Positions 4,607-44,778 of a stretch of DNA of 64,000 nucleotides are shown here, piece by piece. The notes beneath the pieces were generated by a model, which saw only the letters and a program-made list of their open reading frames with translations, had not been told where the DNA came from and did no database searches. The DNA is taken from positions 64,001 through 128,000 of the IMG/VR virus record IMGVR_UViG_2811995030_000001. One strand, given 5' to 3'. The translations under genes and the position numbers were made by a program. Source of the stretch: a virus. Lineage: Duplodnaviria > Caudoviricetes. Each line of letters opens with the position of its first letter. The stretch's first letter is position 1.

Positions 4607-4653
4607 TAGATGCAACTAAGAGACAGGTTAATCCCTGTCTTTTCTTTATAGAG

Positions 4654-5253
4654 GTGATAAAACTGAAACGTTTCATAGGATTTATTTTAATTGTGGCTGC
4701 ATTAGTAATAGGATTAAACTCTTTTCTAAATTGGCATCAAGGGAAATCAGCAGCTCAAGAATTAACGCAAGCAGAAGTTAAACAATATAAAGCATCTTCA
4801 ACAACTACAAATGAGCAGGAAACTAAACAAATTCCATCCTCTAGTGTAAGTCATAATAAAGGTGATAAAGTGGCTATGCTCATGATTCCTTCACTTGGAA
4901 AGAAGTATTCTGTGTATTGGGGAACAGATGAAGATAGTCTGAAAAAGGGTGTAGGAATGTTTGTAAGCTACACAACAACAACTCCTAGTGGTAATGGTCA
5001 TACTGTTTTAAGTGGTCATAGAGACACAGTATTTGCTGAATTAGGGGAACTTAAGGAAGGTAATACTTTAGTTGTTAAATATGATGACGAATATTACACA
5101 TACGAGATAACAAAAACATGGATTGTTGATAAGGATGATAGAAGCGTTATTGTAAAGAAAGATAAATCTACGCTAACTCTTACAACATGCTATCCTTTTC
5201 AATATGTAGGAAATGCACCAGAGCGATATATTATACAAGCTAAACGAATGTAG
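4654..5253 (+). CDS. class D sortase
   Basis: N-terminal TM, LSGHRDT, LTLTTCYPF...R catalytic motifs. Confidence 0.9.
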   Translation: MIKLKRFIGFILIVAALVIGLNSFLNWHQGKSAAQELTQAEVKQYKASSTTTNEQETKQIPSSSVSHNKGDKVAMLMIPSLGKKYSVYWGTDEDSLKKGVGMFVSYTTTTPSGNGHTVLSGHRDTVFAELGELKEGNTLVVKYDDEYYTYEITKTWIVDKDDRSVIVKKDKSTLTLTTCYPFQYVGNAPERYIIQAKRM

Positions 5254-12236: not shown

Positions 12237-12359
12237 GCTGTAAATTGCAATAAAATATCCATTTCCTATAGAAAAATAAATTAGAGAATAATTGAAAAAG
12301 TGCTTGCAATATCAGATACAAGAGATTATAATTAAGTTAAATCAAACAAAATAAAATAC

Positions 12360-20732: not shown

Positions 20733-21022
20733 TGATTTGGTTCATTATAGCACTATTTGGAACGTTAGTTGGGTTTGTTGGATTAGGGTTATACCTAACA
20801 ATTGAAGATGAAAAGGAGTACAGAAATGCGACTGAAACGAAAAAAGAAGCGTAAAGACTCCAGTTGGATTGAATGGGTTTTTGAACTACTTGAACCGTTA
20901 TGGTTATTGTTTCAGTGGGTCATCAAATTAATACATAGATATATTTAAACTAAAATTGGAATTTTATATAGAAATAGGGTTTCAAGAATGGCGTTAAATC
21001 AACGTTTCTAGGAGGTGCGAAA

Positions 21023-21241
21023 ATGTTCTTTAGAAAGAAGATAAAGAAAGAAAGCAAAGAGTCATTTTGTCTACATGAATGGCAGCTAGTTGACTACTAT
21101 ACTGATACTTTTAATACAGGTGTAGCTGTAGAAGTAGATGATTATTATAAATTAGGCTGCCCTAAATGCAAAACATACAAATCTGTAGAGGAATATGAGT
21201 TATTTAGAATGAGAGATTTAGGATTGATTAAAGACAACTAA
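21023..21241 (+). CDS. hypothetical Zn-binding protein
   Basis: FCLHEW...CPKC; GGAGG RBS. Confidence 0.65.
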   Translation: MFFRKKIKKESKESFCLHEWQLVDYYTDTFNTGVAVEVDDYYKLGCPKCKTYKSVEEYELFRMRDLGLIKDN

Positions 21242-21352
21242 GGAAGTGTACATAATGGAGATTAAAGAAATTTTATTCGTGTTCGGTGGAGGCTTATTTT
21301 TAGGGCTACACTACGGCTATATGTTAGGACGTTATAGAATGGGGAGATGTGA

Positions 21353-21595
21353 ATGAAGCGAGAAACTCTCAACCAAATTAAGAAATTACAAAACAAGAAA
21401 GCAAAGGCACAACAAAAATTAGCAAGCCTTGGAATAAAGAAAGAAATGTTAGATAAGGGATATGAAGTTGGAAGGTTTGTATCAAGGAAGAGCCAAAATT
21501 CACGACTAACAGAACAAATAAATGGATTAAATAGAGAGATAAAATACTACGATGTCAAAATTGGTTTGTTGATTAAGGAGGTTTGTAAGAAATGA
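21353..21595 (+). CDS. hypothetical protein
   Basis: ORF with RBS. Confidence 0.6.
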   Translation: MKRETLNQIKKLQNKKAKAQQKLASLGIKKEMLDKGYEVGRFVSRKSQNSRLTEQINGLNREIKYYDVKIGLLIKEVCKK

Positions 21596-21972
21596 GTATA
21601 CCACAAAAAATTGCAATGCAAGGGGTTAAGGTAGTTGAGGAGTATTTGAGTTATATGAATCGAATAGAAACAGCACAGAAACAATGTAAGGACTGTGCGT
21701 TAAAGATAAAAGAAATAGAGAAGAGAATTAGAAAGCTAGTAGAGGAAAAATATCATTGGTCATACTCTCATTATGAGAGGGATAAGCCAAATTTATTACT
21801 TGTTTCTTATGAACTGGAGGAGCTGGTTAAAGATCATGTTTCCACGACACTTTCTTTCACTGAAGCAGATAATCTCCAACTATCCTTGAGAGAAGAGATG
21901 TATTACAAACGATGGCTTTCAGATTGGGAAATTGAACGAAGAGAACGTATAGGTTCAAAGAAATCACGTTAA
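21592..21972 (+). CDS. hypothetical protein
   Basis: AGGAGG RBS; stop codon in the core repeat at 21970. Confidence 0.65.
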   Translation: MSIPQKIAMQGVKVVEEYLSYMNRIETAQKQCKDCALKIKEIEKRIRKLVEEKYHWSYSHYERDKPNLLLVSYELEELVKDHVSTTLSFTEADNLQLSLREEMYYKRWLSDWEIERRERIGSKKSR

Positions 21973-22012
21973 AACAGAAATCTTATCGTAATTTAAAATT
22001 AGGAGGAAGCCT

Positions 22013-22465
22013 ATGAAAAGTAGATATAAAAAACACTTAAAGCGTATAGCAGCCAGAACGCCTATAGTTACCTTTTCTCAAAATGAAACAGCAAACAAAG
22101 GAGAAGTTATTGATAAGGCTATTCTAGACAATTATTTTGATAAATTTACAGGATATATTGCTGAACAATGGCAGTTAGAAGAAATGCGATATGAAGATAT
22201 TAAGAAAGGTTTCTATTCAGATGTATTACTCTTTATGAACAATTATTTAACTTGTGGTAATAATGATTATATTTATTTGTTGATACCTACTAGTAAGAAT
22301 AAATATAAAGTTATTGAAAAAGAGCATGTTCCTACATGGCAACGTATTTATTGGGAGAAAGAAGACCCTAATGATGATAGAAGTTGGTGTTATTTTGATG
22401 AAGACACTTATGATCTTTGGGAGTATATGATAAATCAGCTTGATAAACATGTAGAGGCTTTCTAA
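22013..22465 (+). CDS. hypothetical protein between core repeats 21970 and 22475
   Basis: AGGAGG RBS. Confidence 0.7.
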   Translation: MKSRYKKHLKRIAARTPIVTFSQNETANKGEVIDKAILDNYFDKFTGYIAEQWQLEEMRYEDIKKGFYSDVLLFMNNYLTCGNNDYIYLLIPTSKNKYKVIEKEHVPTWQRIYWEKEDPNDDRSWCYFDEDTYDLWEYMINQLDKHVEAF

Positions 22466-22500
22466 GATTTAGGATAAAAGATAGCTTATATCTAGAATTA

Positions 22501-22631
22501 AATATTTTTCTTGCAATTAGTTTGAAAATATGCGATAACTAAATTAAATAAATTACATAACTGGATTAAATGAATATTTCTCTTGTAAAAAAATTAAAAA
22601 TAAGATATAATCAAATTAAATAAAATACATA
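22501..22631 (+). promoter_or_regulatory. tandem diverged duplication of a promoter/operator upstream of tnpB
   Basis: 22501-22559 vs 22573-22631; TTGCAA-17-GATAAC and TTGTAA-17-TATAAT, each followed by AAATTAAATAAAwTACATA. Confidence 0.7.
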
Positions 22632-22707
22632 TTAAAAATAAATTCCTTTTAGTACAGTATGGAAAGTGTGTATAAAATCAAAATTAGACATTGGGAGGTG
22701 AATATTT

Positions 22708-24153
22708 ATGTCGAATTATATCCTTACACTAAAACTAAGAACTGAAAAGTATCAGGAAGATATATTAAATAAACGTCTAGAGGTTGGAAGGCGTATATAC
22801 AACAGCATACTAGGCGACCTACTTAAACGTTATAATACCCTTAAGCAAAGCAAAGGGTATAGATTAGCTTTAAAAATGCAAAAAGGTAAAGAACGCAATA
22901 AAAAACTTAATGATCTGAATAAAGAATATGGTTTGACTGAATATTTACTTCATACACACATTAAACCGATGCAAAAGAAATTTAAGAAAAACATAGATAG
23001 CTCCACAGCGCAGAAAATTGCTACTAGATGTTTTAGCGCTTTTCAGAAATTGATGCTTCACGAGGCAGACAAATTGAATTTTAAAAAATGTGGAGAGCTA
23101 AACAGTCTAGAGGGAAAATCCAATAAAACAGGAATTAGGTTTAAAAATAACCAATTAGTTTGGAATAAATTAATAATTCCTGTAATTATAAAGAAGAATG
23201 ATATATATGCTCATACTGCATTACAAGATAATATTAAATATTGTCGTGTTGTACGTAAATTAATTGGGGGAAAGTATAAGTTTTATATTCAACTTATACT
23301 AGAAGGAATCCCTCCTAAGAAACATAACAACGAAACTGGTGAAGTTAGGCATGTTAGAAATGAAGGATCAGTTGGAATTGATATTGGCACACAGACGATT
23401 GCTATCTCCTCTCAAAAAGAAGTTAAACTATTAGAGCTTGCGCCAGAAGTGAGTATTATAGAGAAAGAGAAACGTATATTACAGCGTAAGTTGAATAGAC
23501 AACGCAGGGCAAACAATCCTCATAAGTACAATGAAAATGGGCTGATTAAGAGAGGAAATACAGGTAAGTGGATATATAGTAAAAACTATATTAAAACAAA
23601 AAATAAATTAGCTGAGTTACAAAGGAAGATTGCTGCTAAGCGTAAGCAGTCTCATGAGAAATTAGCTAATTACATCCTAACGCTTGGCGATAACATTAAA
23701 GTTGAGCAGATGAACTATCAGGGATTACAGAAGAGAGCAAAAGAAACAACTGTCAATGAGAAGACAGGTCGATTCAATAAAAAGAAAAGGTTTGGGAAGA
23801 GTTTAGAAAATAAAGCACCAGCAATGTTTCTAATAATACTAGATAATAAATTAAAATTTGATAATAAAGAGCTAAGAAAAATTAACACAACCTCATTTAA
23901 AGCAAGTCAATATAATCATTTTACTGATGAGTATGTTAAAAAGAAGTTGTCTGAACGTTGGAATAAATTTGAATGTAGTAAGATTCAGAGAGACTTATAC
24001 AGTGCATATCTGATTATGAACAGTAGATGGAACTTAAAAGAAGCTGATAGAGATTTATGCTTTGATAATTGGAACAGGTTTAAGGAGCTACATGACTTAG
24101 AGATTGAACGATTAAGAAATGAAGATAGAACGATAGCGAGTATGGGAATCTAG
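22708..24153 (+). CDS. tnpB: TnpB-family RNA-guided nuclease (IS200/IS605-IS607 related)
   Basis: RuvC-I VGIDIG, RuvC-II VEQM and RuvC-III QRDLYSA intact; no CxxC Zn finger. Confidence 0.85.
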   Translation: MSNYILTLKLRTEKYQEDILNKRLEVGRRIYNSILGDLLKRYNTLKQSKGYRLALKMQKGKERNKKLNDLNKEYGLTEYLLHTHIKPMQKKFKKNIDSSTAQKIATRCFSAFQKLMLHEADKLNFKKCGELNSLEGKSNKTGIRFKNNQLVWNKLIIPVIIKKNDIYAHTALQDNIKYCRVVRKLIGGKYKFYIQLILEGIPPKKHNNETGEVRHVRNEGSVGIDIGTQTIAISSQKEVKLLELAPEVSIIEKEKRILQRKLNRQRRANNPHKYNENGLIKRGNTGKWIYSKNYIKTKNKLAELQRKIAAKRKQSHEKLANYILTLGDNIKVEQMNYQGLQKRAKETTVNEKTGRFNKKKRFGKSLENKAPAMFLIILDNKLKFDNKELRKINTTSFKASQYNHFTDEYVKKKLSERWNKFECSKIQRDLYSAYLIMNSRWNLKEADRDLCFDNWNRFKELHDLEIERLRNEDRTIASMGI

Positions 24154-24163
24154 GCTATAATAA

Positions 24164-24353
24164 GGTTTTGACACGAGCCTATAGGACGTTAATTTCAACA
24201 TTGGTTGAATTGTCCATGAAAGTCTTATTGAAATGAATGAGTCTTTACATGTTGTAGCTATTCTTGAAATAGTGAGAGTGTAGAGGAAATTCAATAGTAA
24301 ATAAGAACCTCGCAATAATTGTGAGAGTGTCAGATAACTGGGAGGAATAGGTA
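24164..24353 (+). ncRNA. predicted omegaRNA 1 (scaffold to TCAG 24333, guide from 24334)
   Basis: blocks GGTTTTGA..CGAGCCTA.AGGA, TTGTCCATGAAAGTCT and AGAACCT-hairpin-GAGA..TCAG shared with 44470-44642. Confidence 0.75.
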
Positions 24354-24379
24354 CAGAATTATTAAAAGGAGGAATAGAT

Positions 24380-24688
24380 ATGGAATTGTTAAGATTCAGC
24401 AAAAAGGCGTTTAGATATTATTCATTTGAAATCAAGGGTAATGAAGGAGTTTCTTACTTAGAGGCCAGAAAGAAAATGACACGCAATATGTTGCTTGCAT
24501 ATAAGTCTACGGCTGAAGGCTATGAAGGTGATTTATATAAATATGGTTGTCTATGGTTTTTAGTTAAGAATAATAGAATAGTATGGATGAGAAATAAATC
24601 ATATTTTCCTCTTGGATGGAAGAAGGATCATGAGAGATATGAGCAGCTTAATGAAGAGTTGGGAATTAAAACCTTAGTACATACATAA
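24380..24688 (+). CDS. hypothetical protein
   Basis: AGGAGG RBS. Confidence 0.7.
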   Translation: MELLRFSKKAFRYYSFEIKGNEGVSYLEARKKMTRNMLLAYKSTAEGYEGDLYKYGCLWFLVKNNRIVWMRNKSYFPLGWKKDHERYEQLNEELGIKTLVHT

Positions 24689-24732
24689 TAAAAATAAAAT
24701 ACAAAACAGGTGATTAAAAGGAGTGTGAGCAG

Positions 24733-25008
24733 ATGTATGGTATAAAATACAATCAAAGAGATATTCAAGAGAGATTGAGCTATGAAATTAACTATAAAAA
24801 AACTTTAGAGGATAAGATTGCTCTAATGCAAAAAGATAGGCTTAGAGTACAAAATGACGAAACTAAGACAATCATTGATGGAGCGATTAAGGATATTGAG
24901 AATCGTATGAGTAAATCTGTAAAATACATAGAGCTTTATAGCAACTTGATTGAGGAATTTATCATAGGAAAAAGGAAGATTGCTAGCTATTACGATATTT
25001 TTAAGTAA
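24733..25008 (+). CDS. hypothetical protein
   Basis: AAGGAG RBS. Confidence 0.65.
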   Translation: MYGIKYNQRDIQERLSYEINYKKTLEDKIALMQKDRLRVQNDETKTIIDGAIKDIENRMSKSVKYIELYSNLIEEFIIGKRKIASYYDIFK

Positions 25009-25046
25009 ATCATTCAACTTACTTTAAATTCTGAAGGAGAAAAAAT

Positions 25047-25286
25047 ATGAAAGCTTTTGAGGTACATTATCAAACACCAAGGAAGTCTACGATGGTGATT
25101 ATTTTATCTAAAACAGAAGAAGGTATTGAAAATAATTTAATTGATAGAGATGCTGAATATAAAAAATATAAGGGGAAAGTTGCAACTTGTAAAATCAACT
25201 CTCATAAGGAAATTCCTTTATCTAATGTTTTAGTTAGTCACCTATCTGTTGTTGATTTAATGAAGCTTTTAAAGGAGGAGAAATAA
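25047..25286 (+). CDS. hypothetical protein
   Basis: AAGGAG RBS. Confidence 0.65.
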   Translation: MKAFEVHYQTPRKSTMVIILSKTEEGIENNLIDRDAEYKKYKGKVATCKINSHKEIPLSNVLVSHLSVVDLMKLLKEEK

Positions 25287-25411
25287 ATGGAAAAGAGAAT
25301 TGAATTTAAAAATGGTAGTGTAATTGAGGCTCATGATACTAAAGAAAGCATCAGAGGTAAACGCAGCAACTTTATTGAGTGGAAAGAAAAAGAAAATAAA
25401 GAGGTGAATAA

Positions 25412-25750
25412 ATGAAAAATAATTCTTTAGAATTGAATATTATCAACGATTACACGTTTGATATTGTGCCCAATGAAAAAGGAGAAATGCTCATTTACTT
25501 CAAAGTTGAAGATAAAGAATGTATTCTTCCTGTATCTCAATTGGACTTAAAGAATATGGTATGGTGCTCAGAGCAGGCATTAGATGAACCAAGTGGTTTT
25601 ACTTTGTATGAGTCAGATATAGAAGAAATGGTATCAGCTCCAGCAAGTAAGATTCCTGATTTGAAATTGGTACATGATGTAGACTTAACAGAGGAAGAAA
25701 GGATTGAGAAAGCTAGGCGCATTCTAGCCTCTCGAAAGGGAGGAATGTGA
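25412..25750 (+). CDS. hypothetical protein
   Basis: GAGGTG RBS. Confidence 0.65.
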   Translation: MKNNSLELNIINDYTFDIVPNEKGEMLIYFKVEDKECILPVSQLDLKNMVWCSEQALDEPSGFTLYESDIEEMVSAPASKIPDLKLVHDVDLTEEERIEKARRILASRKGGM

Positions 25751-25753
25751 TGA

Positions 25754-26197
25754 ATGACAGTAGCAGTTACAACAGATCAACGAGATATGCTAATAAACAA
25801 AATTAAATTATACATAAAATGGCCTATAAGCATATTTAACAGCTTTGATACAGATGAGCTACATAACTTATATACATACATAAATGAAGGCTACACAGTG
25901 CATAAAGCAAAGGTTAGAGGTAATACAAGATCAATTACATTAAGGCTTCCTAAAGCAGTCACAGAAGAATTAGGGCTTACATATGGTGACAGGTTTAATC
26001 TAAAAGGTAATACTAGTCGAATGGTAATTTTAGAACCATACATATCAGGTAAATTGAAACTAGGTACAAGTAACACAATCAACTTTCCAGCATTGTTAGC
26101 AGCTAAACAATTACTAAAACCAGCAGATGACACTTTGATTGTAGTTAAGGATGGTCGAATATTCCTTAAGTCATTTACTTATATGCAAAGGTATTAA
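25754..26197 (+). CDS. protein with tandem AbrB-like domains
   Basis: SITLRLPKAVTEELGLTYGD and TINFPALLAAKQLLKPADD. Confidence 0.55.
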   Translation: MTVAVTTDQRDMLINKIKLYIKWPISIFNSFDTDELHNLYTYINEGYTVHKAKVRGNTRSITLRLPKAVTEELGLTYGDRFNLKGNTSRMVILEPYISGKLKLGTSNTINFPALLAAKQLLKPADDTLIVVKDGRIFLKSFTYMQRY

Positions 26198-27561: not shown

Positions 27562-28611
27562 ATGGAAGCTAAAGTATTAGCATTCGATAATGGTAAATCA
27601 GATAATTATAAAGTATATGAGATCATTGAAAAATTTTTAGACTTCTATAAATATAATGATTTTGGTAAAGCTAATAATACAGCTAGAAATTATAAGAGTC
27701 ATATTAATCACTTCTTCGATTACCTAAAGAAAGATATTAGATTCTTAACTGTTGAAGATATTCAAATTACTGTTGATGATGTTGAAAGATATATGAAATA
27801 TATGAAGAATTCTAAAGATAATACAGCTTCAACAATTAAAACTAAAGTAGGAACTATTAATAAATTATATGAAGAATTCTATAAGAAGGACTTAGTTAAG
27901 GATTTAAAAGCATTTGATACTAAGTTATTTAAAAAATTAAATACTACTTCGCAGGAAATTGATGCATTCACAGCTAATGAAATAGAAGCAATGGTTAAAG
28001 TTGCAGGGGAAGATAGAGAGAAGCCACTTGAAAAACAATGTTTATTAAAATTAGCAGCTACTATTGGTTTTCGTATAGGTGACTTATTAAATTTAACTTG
28101 GAGTGATTTTGCAGTATATGATGAATATGTATTAGTTAAGGCCAGACAACCAAAGAGAGGTAATGCTTATGCTAATAAAATTTCACATGAATTATATGAA
28201 GAGATATTAGAAATTAAATCTGAAAACGCTTCTAAAGATAATAAAGTATTTAATTTTGTCTCTAAGACTGTAGAGAGAATGATGACTAGATATACTGAGA
28301 AAATTGGTATTCAAGATGAAAGATCATTAAGCTTCCATAGTATTCGTAAGTTTGCTATTACAAATTTCTATTCAATTACTAAAGATTTCTACGCAACTCA
28401 ACTATTTGCTAATCATAAAGAGCCTTCTACAACGAAAAAGTATATTAAATATGTAGATGATTATGGTGTAATTGGCCTATTCAATTCTAATAAAGAAGAC
28501 ACAAATGAGTTAAATGATATTTCAGAAGCTGAATTAAGAGCAGTTATTAAGTCATTAACTGAAAGTCAGAAATTAGATTTACTTAGAAAACATAAAGAGT
28601 TATTTGGTTAG
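27562..28611 (+). CDS. yopP: tyrosine recombinase, SPbeta YopP-like, catalytic residues intact
   Basis: SAM-like N-domain; GFRIGDL (R), FHSIRK (HxxR), ANH, TTKKY; synteny. Confidence 0.8.
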   Translation: MEAKVLAFDNGKSDNYKVYEIIEKFLDFYKYNDFGKANNTARNYKSHINHFFDYLKKDIRFLTVEDIQITVDDVERYMKYMKNSKDNTASTIKTKVGTINKLYEEFYKKDLVKDLKAFDTKLFKKLNTTSQEIDAFTANEIEAMVKVAGEDREKPLEKQCLLKLAATIGFRIGDLLNLTWSDFAVYDEYVLVKARQPKRGNAYANKISHELYEEILEIKSENASKDNKVFNFVSKTVERMMTRYTEKIGIQDERSLSFHSIRKFAITNFYSITKDFYATQLFANHKEPSTTKKYIKYVDDYGVIGLFNSNKEDTNELNDISEAELRAVIKSLTESQKLDLLRKHKELFG

Positions 28612-28810: not shown

Positions 28811-30193
28811 ATGAAAAGTATGAAATTGGGAAGAGATTTTGAGGAAGTGTGTGAGGTTGTTACAGAAGCAATTCAAATGTATAAGAGAAACAGAAGAAGA
28901 TATCCTTTAGTTCAAGTAATTGCTGAAGACCTTACAAAGTACAGTGTGAACCCTAGTTACATTAGAGATATATTTAACAATCCAGAAGAAAAGCTAAGAG
29001 AAGTAGATAGAAAATTAGTTATTTTATTTATGGAAGCATTTTACAGACATGAACAAATTCAAGGCGTAGAACCAAGTTTATACTTTACAGAACCAGAGAT
29101 TAAAGAGGCTAAATTGTACGATGGCATGGAAGGTAGAAATGTTGATCTAGGCTTACCTTACACATTTAATCGTGCATTGCCAGCAGGAGTAGACGCTTAT
29201 TTAGCTACTGTTACTCCAAGTGATATTAAGAATTTAATGGATGGTCAGGATTTACATTATGATTTTGAAACTCAACGTGAAGCTGATTTCATTAAGACTC
29301 ACGAGGGGGTTCGTGCTGTTCCTAAGATTAACTCAAATAATATCGCTGAAATGGCAGATTTAATGGTTAAGGGAGAATTAATGCCAAGTACATTAGTTTG
29401 GAATGCTGCGGTAGGAACTTCAGATACAGGTGACGAATTAGTATACGATGTTAAATCTACATCTTTAACTATCCAAAGAGGAACAATTGTTAATAATTTA
29501 GACGGTTATCATCGTTGCAAAGCTACAGTAAGAGCGTTTGAGATTGATCCTGAGTTTGATAAGAAACATAGCTTTGTATTCTCTGTATTAGTTGTAAACT
29601 ATTCAACTAAACAAGCTCAAAAGTATTTAGCTCAACACGCTAAAGCTATGCCTATGTCAGTAACTCATGTTGAAATGTTGGATGCTGTACGTAGGGGTGA
29701 CGACATAATTAAACAATTGAGGAATGAATCTGACTTAGCAGGTCGTATTTCTACTAAAGAAAATGCTATGGTGTCAGTAGATCAATTAACAACTTATAAA
29801 GTATTAGTGGAAGCAATTGAAAAAGATTTCAAATTAGATAGTAAAATGAAGACAATTAAAGCTGGAGATTATTTAGTTAAATTCTTTACTTATTTATTAG
29901 GTGAATTTGAAGATGAGTTTACGAATAAATATCAAGAGACTAGAGAATATTCTTTTATAAATCATAGTTCGATGTTCGCTGGATACATTAGATTAGCAAG
30001 TAAAATGTATTATGAAGAAATTTCATTAGACAACTTAGAGAAAATAATTAATAGTATAGATTTTAGTAAAGACTCGGACAACTTTAAAGAATTAAATAAT
30101 GAAAAGAATCCAGAATCAGCTAAAGCACAACAAATATGCAGAGACTTTTTTGACAAATTAGATATAGAGAAATCGATAGGGGCGATTAAGTGA
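28811..30193 (+). CDS. yopQ: DGQHR/DndB-like domain protein, SPbeta YopQ-like
   Basis: YDFETQRE and NNLDGYHR motifs; synteny. Confidence 0.75.
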   Translation: MKSMKLGRDFEEVCEVVTEAIQMYKRNRRRYPLVQVIAEDLTKYSVNPSYIRDIFNNPEEKLREVDRKLVILFMEAFYRHEQIQGVEPSLYFTEPEIKEAKLYDGMEGRNVDLGLPYTFNRALPAGVDAYLATVTPSDIKNLMDGQDLHYDFETQREADFIKTHEGVRAVPKINSNNIAEMADLMVKGELMPSTLVWNAAVGTSDTGDELVYDVKSTSLTIQRGTIVNNLDGYHRCKATVRAFEIDPEFDKKHSFVFSVLVVNYSTKQAQKYLAQHAKAMPMSVTHVEMLDAVRRGDDIIKQLRNESDLAGRISTKENAMVSVDQLTTYKVLVEAIEKDFKLDSKMKTIKAGDYLVKFFTYLLGEFEDEFTNKYQETREYSFINHSSMFAGYIRLASKMYYEEISLDNLEKIINSIDFSKDSDNFKELNNEKNPESAKAQQICRDFFDKLDIEKSIGAIK

Positions 30194-31218
30194 TGACTGG
30201 TTTTTATAATGAGGGATTAAAACTAGCTTATATGCATCGTGAGGGTGCGCCAGAAAGTACAGAAGATATATATAAATCGGTATTCAGACGTTCTAAAGTA
30301 GAAGAGGAGCGTTTACAAAGAGACTTAAAGGATTTCACTAGGGATGATTTTCGTAATTTATTTCATTATTTAGAGCCATCAACCATACCTGCTGTAAGAA
30401 CATTGGCAAGTTTTATATCTAACTATGTAGAATGGACAATTGAAAACGGACATAGAACCAGTAGAGATAATCCGCTGAAGCCATTAGGAGACAGTTTTAT
30501 TGAGGCCGTAGTGTCTGGACATAAATTATATATAAATGAAGAAGAATTATTAGAAATTGAAGCTGATCCAAGAATTAGTTTTGCTAATAAAGTAATCCTT
30601 AGATTAATATGGGAAGGTGTTTTAGGTAAGGCTAATTCTGAATTATTGAATTTACACAAAGATGATATAGATTTTGATAAACGAATGTTGACTTTACGTG
30701 ATGATGATAAAGATATAGGTGAGAGAACTATACAAGTTAGTGAAAGATGTATTGAAATAATCAAAGCAGCATTGAATGAAGATAATTATACAATTACAAC
30801 GCCTAGAGGCAATAGAGATTTTGAATTGATAAATACAGGATATGTTATAAAGAAAACTACATTTGGTAAAGCATCTGCTGATACATCTGGTAAAGCAACT
30901 AAACAGGTAACAATGAGTCGATTAAAAGATGTGGCATATGGTCTAGAAATGAAATTCCTAACACCTACAAATGTAAGAAGATCAGGAATGATAAATATGG
31001 CTAAGAATTTATTTTTACGTGATGGAGAATTATCACCTGAACAATTTAGAGAAATATCTAAGCAATTTGGAATTAAGAAAATCAACAGAAGCTCAAATCC
31101 AAATGAAGTTAATATGGATTATAATTATTATTATACAGTAAAGGTGTTTACAACAAGAGACAACATTCTAAAGTTATATGGAATAGACATCGAGAAAGAA
31201 CCTTCTACTCAACAGTAA
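30190..31218 (+). CDS. mrpR: MrpR/YopR-like master repressor (degenerate tyrosine recombinase fold)
   Basis: LIWEGVLGKANSELLNL lacks the first catalytic Arg; TNVRRSGM lacks His; synteny. Confidence 0.8.
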   Translation: MMTGFYNEGLKLAYMHREGAPESTEDIYKSVFRRSKVEEERLQRDLKDFTRDDFRNLFHYLEPSTIPAVRTLASFISNYVEWTIENGHRTSRDNPLKPLGDSFIEAVVSGHKLYINEEELLEIEADPRISFANKVILRLIWEGVLGKANSELLNLHKDDIDFDKRMLTLRDDDKDIGERTIQVSERCIEIIKAALNEDNYTITTPRGNRDFELINTGYVIKKTTFGKASADTSGKATKQVTMSRLKDVAYGLEMKFLTPTNVRRSGMINMAKNLFLRDGELSPEQFREISKQFGIKKINRSSNPNEVNMDYNYYYTVKVFTTRDNILKLYGIDIEKEPSTQQ

Positions 31219-42452: not shown

Positions 42453-42626
42453 GTGATTATTATAATTGGATACATAAGATATGTCTATAATTTAACATGG
42501 AGTAATTGGTATTGGAAGGTTTGGCTGGGGTCAGATATTGACTTATTTGATAACTGTAGTTGGAAAGTATATAAGAGCACTCTTACAGAATCTACATCTC
42601 CTAAATCAGGACAATCTAAACAATAA
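42453..42626 (+). CDS. small Trp-rich protein; intact allele paralogous to the remnant after omegaRNA 2 (start uncertain)
   Basis: GYIRYVYNLTWSNWYWKVWLGSDIDLFDNCSWKVYK vs RYVYRLASFNLHYKTWMGSDIGLFDNCSWKAYK. Confidence 0.65.
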   Translation: MIIIIGYIRYVYNLTWSNWYWKVWLGSDIDLFDNCSWKVYKSTLTESTSPKSGQSKQ

Positions 42627-42659
42627 AGAAGGGGAGGTGGGTGCATCAAGGAAAATGGA

Positions 42660-42863
42660 CTACTCTCTTTGATTCCACCCAAGCAATTCGTTAGGTGTAC
42701 ATTCTAATGCTGTACAAATACGTTCCATAATCTCAAATTTAATAGAAGCTGTTTTTCTGTCAGCTAGATTACACAAGTTTGGATACGTAATTCTTACTTC
42801 TTTAGCTAACCAGTAACGTGTTCTATCTTTTTCTTTAAGTAAATCATCGATCATTATTTTCAT
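42660..42863 (-). CDS. Cro/XRE HTH regulator divergent from tnpB
   Basis: close paralog of 5378-5572; GAGGTG RBS. Confidence 0.85.
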   Translation of the reverse strand: MKIMIDDLLKEKDRTRYWLAKEVRITYPNLCNLADRKTASIKFEIMERICTALECTPNELLGWNQRE

Positions 42864-42985
42864 ATTTTATCACCTCTCTATATATTATAAGTAATATACA
42901 AATCTTTTTCAATATATACTGTTGATAATACATACTGTCTACTGTAATATAAGTGTATGGAGATGAATACAAGTGAATCAGATCG

Positions 42986-44458
42986 GTGGTGAGAAGAATG
43001 GGTGAAGTTAAGAAATCAACATTTATTTTACAGTTGCCATTACATACTACAAATTCAGATGTTGCTGCATTAAATAAATATTTTGAACTATCCCGTAAGT
43101 TATATAATGTTTTACTTAATGAATCATTGAAGAGATTAAATCTAATGAGACAGTCCAAACAATATCAATTAATTAAGAAGCTAGATAAGAAAGAGCAAAC
43201 TAAAGCATACAGGAAAGCTAGAGAAGATTTTAGATTTACAAAATATGATTTAATTAAGTTCTCCACTCCCTTAAGAATAAATGAATTTAAACAGGTTGAT
43301 TCTAGCACAGTTCAAAAACTTGCTCAACGCGCCTTTTTATCAGTAGAGAGAATGTTTTATGGGAAGGCTAAGCGAGTTAATTTTAAGTGTAAGGGCGAAA
43401 TGGATTCAGTTGAAGGATCAAGTAATAGACAAGGAATTAAATATCGTGATGGGTATCTACAATGGAACAAACTAAATATCAAGGTGAAGATTAAAGAATG
43501 TGATTATTATGCACATGAGGCATTAACAAATAAGATTAAATATTGTCGTATTGTTAGAAAGTTAATTAGAGGTAAAATTAGATTCTTTATACACTTAGTC
43601 CTAGAAGGAATCCCGCCTAGAAAAATTGATAATAAAACAGGGATGTTTAAAGGTAGACACGGGGAGGGAAAGGTAGGAATTGATATTGGCACACAAACTA
43701 TTGCCATTGTAAGTAAGAATGAGACAAAATTATTAGAATTGGCACCAGAAGTTAACAGCATTCATAAACAAATGAGAGTTATTCAACGCAAGATGAACAG
43801 AAGTAAATGCATGATGAATCCACATAAATTCAACGAAGACGGAACAATTAAAAGGAGAAATGGAGAAAAATGGATATGGAGTAAGAACTACTTAAAATTA
43901 CGTTATCAATTAGCTGAGTTGCAACGTAAACAAGCTGATATTAGAAAACAGTCACACTATCGACTAGCCAATTGGATTATAAGTCTAGGTGACAGATTCT
44001 ATGTCGAACAAATGAACTATAAAGGACTACAGAAAAGAACAAAGGAAACAATAATTAATGAAAAAACAGGTAGATACAATAAGAAGAAACGATTTGGAAA
44101 ATCCTTAGCAAATAAAGCGCCCGCAATGATACTGACGTTGCTAAAGCAGAAGTTAGGGTATTGGGAATTGGAATTAAACAAGATTGATACATTTAATTTT
44201 AAAGCAAGCCAATATAATCACTTTACAGATGACTACACAAAGAAAAGTTTATCAGCTAGATGGAATGAATTTGAATGTGGAAAAATACAGCGTGATCTTT
44301 ATTCTGCTTATTTAATTATGAATAGTAGAGATGATTTAAAAAATACTGATAGAGCATTATGTATAAGTAGTTGGAATAATTTTAAACAGTTACATGATAT
44401 TGAAGTTGAACGATTAAAAAACTGTGGAAATAAATTAATTGGTAGTATGGGTTTATAA
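42986..44458 (+). CDS. tnpB: TnpB-family RNA-guided nuclease
   Basis: VGIDIG, YVEQM and QRDLYSA intact; paralog of 22708-24153. Confidence 0.85.
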   Translation: MVRRMGEVKKSTFILQLPLHTTNSDVAALNKYFELSRKLYNVLLNESLKRLNLMRQSKQYQLIKKLDKKEQTKAYRKAREDFRFTKYDLIKFSTPLRINEFKQVDSSTVQKLAQRAFLSVERMFYGKAKRVNFKCKGEMDSVEGSSNRQGIKYRDGYLQWNKLNIKVKIKECDYYAHEALTNKIKYCRIVRKLIRGKIRFFIHLVLEGIPPRKIDNKTGMFKGRHGEGKVGIDIGTQTIAIVSKNETKLLELAPEVNSIHKQMRVIQRKMNRSKCMMNPHKFNEDGTIKRRNGEKWIWSKNYLKLRYQLAELQRKQADIRKQSHYRLANWIISLGDRFYVEQMNYKGLQKRTKETIINEKTGRYNKKKRFGKSLANKAPAMILTLLKQKLGYWELELNKIDTFNFKASQYNHFTDDYTKKSLSARWNEFECGKIQRDLYSAYLIMNSRDDLKNTDRALCISSWNNFKQLHDIEVERLKNCGNKLIGSMGL

Positions 44459-44469
44459 TTTAAATTAAT

Positions 44470-44662
44470 GGTTTTGAATCGAGCCTACAGGATGCTAATG
44501 GATTCAATGGAGTCCTTGTCCATGAAAGTCTCAGGATACTATCTTCAATAGCTATGATGTGTACCGAAAGGGAGAGCATAGATACGAATTTAGAGAATGA
44601 GAACCTGCCATGTGAGTATGGAGAACGTGTGCAGAGATTCAGAAGGTACGTTTATAGATTAG
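44470..44662 (+). ncRNA. predicted omegaRNA 2 (scaffold to TCAG 44642, guide from 44643)
   Basis: conserved blocks shared with omegaRNA 1. Confidence 0.75.
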
Positions 44663-44778
44663 CGAGTTTCAATTTACACTATAAGACTTGGATGGGATCA
44701 GATATTGGATTGTTCGATAACTGTAGCTGGAAGGCTTATAAGCGCTCATTAGAGGAGGAGAAGCGTCATGAACTATGA
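44643..44778 (+). pseudogene. 5'-truncated allele of the 42453 gene that supplies the guide
   Basis: in-frame homology to 42476 onward begins exactly at the scaffold boundary. Confidence 0.7.

Follow-up and report, generated by a model that had tools for sequence, protein, structure and literature searches.

The window analysed here, a stretch of 64,000 nucleotides, is part of a complete 136.5-kb provirus of the SPbeta type, which encodes an MrpR homolog. On its plus strand, a gene for a 481-residue TnpB (tnpB, 22708..24153) is preceded by a leader (22640..22707) that contains its ribosome-binding site (RBS, 22693-22703) and is without the left-end hairpin of an insertion sequence (IS). The gene is followed by an omega-RNA scaffold (24160..24333) and, after the cassette, by a homolog of yorE of SPbeta-like phages (24380..24688), recognized through its matches in 27 phage records, the best at 54% identity. 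The cassette is bracketed by a tandem pair of predicted promoter units on the left and a tandem pair of RBS-plus-start segments on the right, all on the same strand. Elsewhere in the window, a tyrosine integrase gene (27562-28611) and a DndB-like gene followed by the MrpR homolog (28811-31218) form an SPbeta-type lysogeny module.

The protein matches NF040570 (E 5.7e-28) with 98.3 bits, just below the curated cut-off of 100, and no Pfam match was found for it. Profile and alignment place its RuvC triad at D225, E333 and D429, residues that all 48 proteins of the alignment share; the triad is thus not inactivated as it is in TldRs. The TnpB profile reached a single PDB sequence, 9j09_A, across RuvC-II/III, and showed the zinc-finger cysteines to be missing, while phmmer with the protein against PDB gave no match. 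The nearest intact IS605 relatives of this TnpB are 63-68% identical to it. Active RNA-guided cleavage, the TAM and expression of the protein are predictions.

The DNA 3' of the tnpB stop codon folds better than 198 of 200 shuffled versions (z -2.33), and a covarying omega-RNA structure, with two-sided changes in 23 of 32 pairs, is common to the window and 11 relatives; the scaffold has no match in Rfam. Relatives have right ends of the form ..GTGTCAG or ..GTTCAG, and their sequences part from the very next base on; a single contig (L003-L005; L numbers denote loci in our comparison) carries three identical copies that do likewise. The right end of the cassette lies at the same conserved TCAG tetranucleotide (24330-33) as in intact elements. 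Because relatives share this end and diverge right after it, the guide can be started at 24334, exactly where a sequence-only reading of this DNA had placed its boundary. The predicted guide (24334..24353) has a length of 16-20 nt, taken from two reports (PMC8612924; 10.1101/2023.11.30.569447), and contains the first RBS copy. Two other element types were also ruled out: an IS607/GG-core element, because relatives carry Y1 TnpA and end in TCAG, and an IStron, built round a group I intron, because a search of 21500-25500 against Rfam, with E values of up to 1 allowed, came back empty.

Loss of transposition functions

No Y1 TnpA (PF01797) was matched anywhere in the 136.5-kb prophage, and the ORF lists are likewise without one, so that the earlier observation that no TnpA lies nearby now extends to the whole prophage. 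Nor is there an intact IS left-end hairpin, in keeping with the earlier reading: a profile built from the left ends of 24 relatives found no match upstream of tnpB. A decayed left end at 22630-22700 is suggestive by eye and not significant (pairwise p 0.07-0.65), and the leader at 22640..22707 may possibly hold such a remnant. On the right, the terminal stem of the hairpin (24309-24325) is retained and the CTTTAG loop of intact elements has been replaced, a combination that would be expected if the RNA fold were selected and TnpA binding were not.

Target motif, split target and reconstructed empty allele

Among the relatives are many intact IS605 elements that carry a Y1 tnpA, and in 22 of 28 of these TTAC lies no more than 24 nt before the left-end hairpin. 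Furthermore, the L017 and L018 elements have three empty sites at which TTAC stands directly 5' of guide-matching DNA, and for ISDra2 the TAM is described as identical to the TnpA target (PMC8612924). On family grounds, TTAC is the predicted TAM of this TnpB; the motif put forward in the sequence-only reading is therefore borne out as the family target and, for this particular protein, is predicted by kinship. At our locus it occupies 22553..22556, within a repeated phage motif, and is followed by an 8-nt stub (22557..22564) identical to guide positions 1-8. Both of these, the guide start at 24334 and a 10-nt RBS repeat at 24341 and 24368 were found just as that reading had described them.

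The 136.5-kb prophage has 1,548 TTAC sites; of these, 1,547 match the guide seed over 0-4 nt and only the one at 22553 matches it over 8 nt. The window contains TTAC with these 8 bases a single time, against 0.02 expected, and 2 of 100 shuffles attained a count of one. The stub at 22557-64 conflicts with the description of the IS200/IS605 family as leaving no target-site duplication (PMC13565253). One could still regard the match as incidental and the cassette as a non-autonomous IS1341-type element whose mobility comes from a host TnpA acting in trans, given that its right end retains TCAG as intact elements do and that our TnpA search covered the prophage rather than the host chromosome. However, the seed scan, the shuffles and the recurrence draws given below all argue that the match is not incidental, and mobilization in trans as defined for the IS1341 group involves two intact ends, of which the left-end hairpin is absent here and the right-end loop lost. 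We therefore regard this explanation as very improbable.

Promoter unit 1 (22496..22567), the likely recipient allele, has a putative -35 box (TTGCAA, 22511-16), a 17-nt spacer, a putative -10 box (GATAAC, 22534-39) and a copy of the phage-wide motif (22546-57); it is absent from the output of our consensus promoter scan, and its promoter function is a prediction only. Unit 2 (22568..22639), which was probably carried by the cassette, has predicted -35 and -10 boxes (TTGTAA, 22583-88; TATAAT, 22606-11) that agree with the consensus at 10/12 positions, and in its copy of the motif (22618-29) ATAC replaces TTAC, leaving no TAM and a 3-nt seed. The two units make up a 72-bp tandem pair in which 77% of 64 nt agree, and the full 64-nt unit has no second occurrence elsewhere in the prophage. 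Thus the duplicated promoter/operator noticed earlier is real, but what looked like its 'operator' belongs to a motif with 34 copies across the phage. Similarly, the duplicated RBS belongs to a 27-bp tandem pair (22/27 alike), with the qualification that the first copy (24341..24367) is an RBS with a relic of yorE's first five codons whose start codon has been lost, ACA standing where ATG is expected; the second (24368..24379) is, from its sequence, the working RBS of the downstream gene.

Removal of 22565-24368 (1,804 bp) in silico joins TTAC to DNA that matches the guide at 19 of 20 positions, the first 17 of them contiguous. The phage-wide motif, AAAT(A/C)AA(A/T)TACA (12 nt), has 34 copies in the whole prophage and 0.8 in shuffles, and an RBS-like word lies within 30 nt of 19 of the 34, at a gap of 0-21 nt. 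In the joined allele this gap is 6 nt, and the motif-to-RBS layout predicted before yorE in the reconstructed empty allele fits the usual one of the phage. Copies of the motif (e.g. at window positions 12349, 19836, 49130 and 60535) precede RBSs or -35 boxes, and its TTAC variant is a ready-made IS605 target. The yorE promoter of SPbeta is described as containing a repeated element to which MrpR binds (PMC10516654), and the 12-nt motif is a candidate MrpR operator. As in the SPBRE/MrpR system of SPbeta, there is an MrpR homolog in the prophage, a yorE homolog downstream and a repeated intergenic motif in both promoter units; the motif is a putative counterpart of the 15-bp SPBRE given there (PMC10516654).

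We found no empty allele of the window site in the viral contigs, genome contigs, named phages, metagenomes or short-pattern scans that were searched. The reason is that none of them yielded a close relative of the phage region, and the join point is therefore a reconstruction. The yorE homolog was not found in viral or genome contigs, all 27 of its records in named phages were below 60% identity with unrelated upstream DNA, and a protein collection contained two homologs. The upstream gene was met in metagenomes at two loci only (41-43% identity), of which the one inspected, L065, differs in context, and MrpR was not found in viral contigs. The empty sites in related phages to which the sequence-only reading had looked did not appear when the flank DNA was compared with phages, and short patterns matched viral contigs once in one scan and 11 times in another, always in an unrelated context. 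Four sequencing runs over 21000-26000 gave no empty-site joint, their contigs being fragmentary and hence no proof either way; contig counts differ (yorE 8, upstream gene 7, tnpB 5 proteins) in a manner that allows no interpretation. The empty-allele layout proposed earlier is thus supported by the motif-to-RBS spacing and by the sister loci L037 and L041, where it is seen, and not by an allele of this site.

Recurrence in sister cassettes

To the 58 distinct sites obtained from 102 loci we added the two of the window. Rows in which no right end could be recognized (L007-L014, L042, L058, L068, L081 and L102) had been dropped, as had incomplete genes, loci with short flanks and guides nearly identical to others, and L109-L123 were not counted. 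At least 8 guide-start bases were present no more than 230 nt upstream of tnpB at 7 of 21 sites that, as judged by pattern, lack tnpA and a left end (0.24 expected), versus 1 of 39 IS-like sites (0.54 expected). In a refined set of 16 tnpA-less sites, without the window's own two, one same-site row and two rows with a hairpin, a guide copy of 8-18 nt was found at six, where 0.15 were expected and none of 100,000 draws did as well. By source, these were 6 of 11 viral sites (0.09 expected) and 0 of 5 genomic ones. In the quick version of the tree, the only one made, the stub-bearing cassettes occupy several separate branches.

Sister cassettes also provide matched filled and empty alleles. A scan with the L037 guide gave eight matches, comprising four filled alleles, two empty alleles and two unrelated sequences; filled and empty flanks are identical at 126/130 and 200/200 positions, and the filled allele has a 9-nt stub on its left and the whole target on its right. 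Similarly, L041 has an 11-nt stub after TTAC and an empty allele in one of eight records searched. For L044 and L047 no new empty allele was found among eight records, and the L022 flank revealed none in named phages.

The bases before the sister stubs are TTAC (L022, L041), TGAC (L037, L053), GTGC (L044), TTGT (L047) and GATC (L002), and this lack of uniformity means that the TAM has drifted or that some targets are not cut. Behind TTAC or TGAC no stub exceeds 13 nt, and the single 18-nt stub follows neither. This last (L002:940-990 and 2648-2670) is a guide copy just 5' of the tnpB RBS with no TTAC-like motif, and the copied stretch is a short palindrome. No stub is present in L043, L045, L034 or L020, the first two having left-side deletions instead (23 and about 160 nt). 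At one site shared between phages the stub is 9 nt in L044, 7 nt in L046 and deleted in L048, and the L041 guide has lost one base relative to its stub.

L041, L043, L044/L046/L048, L045 and L047 form a well-supported clade that lacks tnpA, has a shortened hairpin at its right end and, in related large phages, occupies no fewer than five different sites. The motifs upstream of the sites of this clade are TTAC, ATGT, GTGC and TTGT; movement without TnpA or a relaxed TAM is possible. L047 interrupts a tRNA-like gene within the anticodon loop (GTG, by eye), with an 8-nt duplication (L047:2820-2870 and 4648-4690), and L043 has an uninterrupted, diverged counterpart of that gene.

The prophage itself carries a second tnpB (42986-44458), again without tnpA, 57% identical to the first and with a guide at 44643. 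Upstream of it is a diverged copy of the ORF that serves as target (42476, 14/20 matches); this tnpB lies between that copy and the guide, and the region looks like a cut-and-rescue layout; no relatives of its product were found in viral contigs. A small divergent HTH-like gene (42660-42863) lies between the upstream ORF copy and this tnpB (region 42453-44778 of the window).

Proposed homing and possible autorepression

We propose, with a probability of roughly 60%, that an IS605-derived tnpB-omega-RNA cassette, having lost its transposase and left end, is an RNA-guided and TnpA-independent homing element. The anatomy, the family motif, the recurrence and the empty alleles of sister cassettes are observed, and the left stub is probably a scar of cutting and repair. 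An IS605 element would have inserted at a TTAC within the operator-like phage motif, just 5' of the yorE RBS, after which tnpA and the TnpA-binding ends would have decayed. TnpB would then cut rival phage genomes that contain TTAC and the uninterrupted target, and repair would copy the cassette into them. TnpB is described as cutting 15-21 bp from the TAM (PMC8612924), and the left broken end would therefore consist of the TAM and up to about 15 target bases. If this tail were partly trimmed and joined to the donor interior, a TAM plus stub would result. At our locus, a later cut of a diverged empty allele, followed by repair with imprecise joints, could have left the TAM and 8 target bases on the left and, by the same imprecision, tandem recipient and donor copies of promoter and RBS, both pairs about 20% diverged; their equal divergence suggests that donor and recipient alleles have been set in tandem. 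Splitting of the target would make the carrier immune, the 8 matched bases falling short of the cut distance of 15-21 bp. The limit of 13 nt on stubs behind TTAC or TGAC is consistent both with this scar mechanism and with selection against self-cutting. No plus-strand terminator was found between tnpB and yorE, and the second RBS would thus keep yorE translatable outside the guide.

Several points stand against homing. A cut at +15 to +21 alone does not account for the start of the right-hand, working RBS copy at target position 8; further, the empty allele of the window site was not found, the bases before stubs are non-uniform, L043 and L045 have deletions, and the NCBIfam score is below its cut-off. 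Some of this would equally suit a decaying IS605 relic in which homing has been lost and the duplicates arose by ordinary exchange of modules between diverged phage alleles, TnpB merely filtering out full matches. Both IS ends have indeed decayed, no empty allele of this site is known from our searches, the duplicates are diverged by about 20%, like alleles, and elements with tnpB only are described as the majority of the family (PMC10055086). However, the open frame, the triad and the scaffold stems are intact although the TnpA-binding features are lost, stubs start exactly at guide base 1 far more often than by chance, and the second tnpB of the prophage likewise adjoins a diverged target copy (14/20). 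We consider a mere relic quite unlikely.

Several known systems come close to this cassette. It shares with the IS605 group (IS608-type TTAC, ISDra2 TnpB; Meers et al., PMC10055086) a D-E-D TnpB, a right-end omega-RNA, a guide in the right flank and TTAC, but differs from it in lacking TnpA, the left-end hairpin, the right-end loop and the zinc-finger cysteines and in having an 8-nt copy of the target on its left. In plasmids, a TnpA-independent advantage of TnpB over empty alleles has been described (Mears et al., PMC11870625), and TnpB homing in phages is discussed as theory (PMC13565253, section 6.1). Our cassette resembles this plasmid gene drive, or transposon non-restorative homing, in its predicted TnpB-dependent, TnpA-independent advantage over the empty allele (PMC11870625; PMC13565253, section 6.1), but that drive used intact IS elements, whereas this is an end-less prophage cassette with duplicated host signals and a half-target. 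Like SegF and SegB of T4 (intronless homing), it would be a stand-alone nuclease beside its target, with an immune carrier and predicted spread in co-infection; unlike them, recognition would be by guide RNA and immunity by a split target rather than by substitutions alone.

Autoregulation of Cas genes is a property of Cas9 tracr-L and CreR. With these and with TldR the cassette has in common a short guide match beside a promoter in the repressive orientation, but its catalytic triad is intact and a full target is also predicted for its guide. The sequence-only reading had suggested that the retained TAM and seed allow autorepression. Some repression of promoter 1 by TnpB binding at the stub, as a by-product, seems to us somewhat short of an even chance; nuclease-dead TnpB is described as binding many TAM sites with a weak seed requirement (PMC10055086). 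It is unlikely, in our judgement, that the TAM and short seed have been kept by selection since TnpB, binding its own promoter uncut, limits its own level and possibly the yorE operon too. The half-target lies just 3' of the -10 box of promoter 1, with the TAM facing the promoter, the orientation in which TldRs are described as blocking elongation in the 5' UTR; their seed is given as about 6 nt, and one TldR as repressing with a guide of ~9 nt (10.1101/2023.11.30.569447). The stub overlaps a TTGACA box in L037 and L053, and the length limit on stubs behind TTAC or TGAC also suits selected autorepression. However, promoter 2, the better match to consensus, lies downstream of the TAM and stub, and a scar at the left junction would fall near the tnpB start in any case. 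The shrinkage and loss of the stub among the same-site phages, the base lost from the L041 guide and the stubless sisters also speak against it, and autorepression is therefore not required by the family. The fliC-TldR loci are described as mutating TAM and seed against self-targeting (10.1101/2023.11.30.569447), whereas the cassette keeps both. The Arc protein is described as a repressor of IS605 promoters (10.64898/2026.09.24.754181), and the ORF list shows no Arc gene within the cassette. By title and abstract, in mostly non-subscription literature, we found no report of TAM-plus-seed stubs or of RNA-guided autorepression by an active TnpB; supplements (e.g. PMC10691335) could tabulate such loci.

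More broadly, and tentatively since we think the odds are against it, these cassettes may constitute a recurrent, polyphyletic class of TnpA-free TnpB homing elements in phages, in which cut-and-repair leaves TAM and seed at the left joint and one guide RNA both destroys empty rivals and represses its own promoter; the presence of the L041-L048 clade at five sites or more would suggest TnpA-free movement. TnpB homing has so far been shown for intact elements, and here there is a recurrent transposase-free phage form with matched filled and empty sister alleles, a direct test case for TnpB alone as a phage homing endonuclease. Such a form, with a half-target in the promoter of the nuclease, is also a plausible starting point from which a cutting TnpB could give rise to RNA-guided repressors (TldR) and to Cas-type autoregulation, and the left stub is probably a record of how TnpB breaks are repaired. 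In intact IS605 elements, the tip of the left end (8-11 nt) is hypervariable and equals the element's own guide start in 2 of 22 (L019 and L023, where it lies some 540-550 nt 5' of tnpB), which suggests that the tip is overwritten with target DNA during repair.
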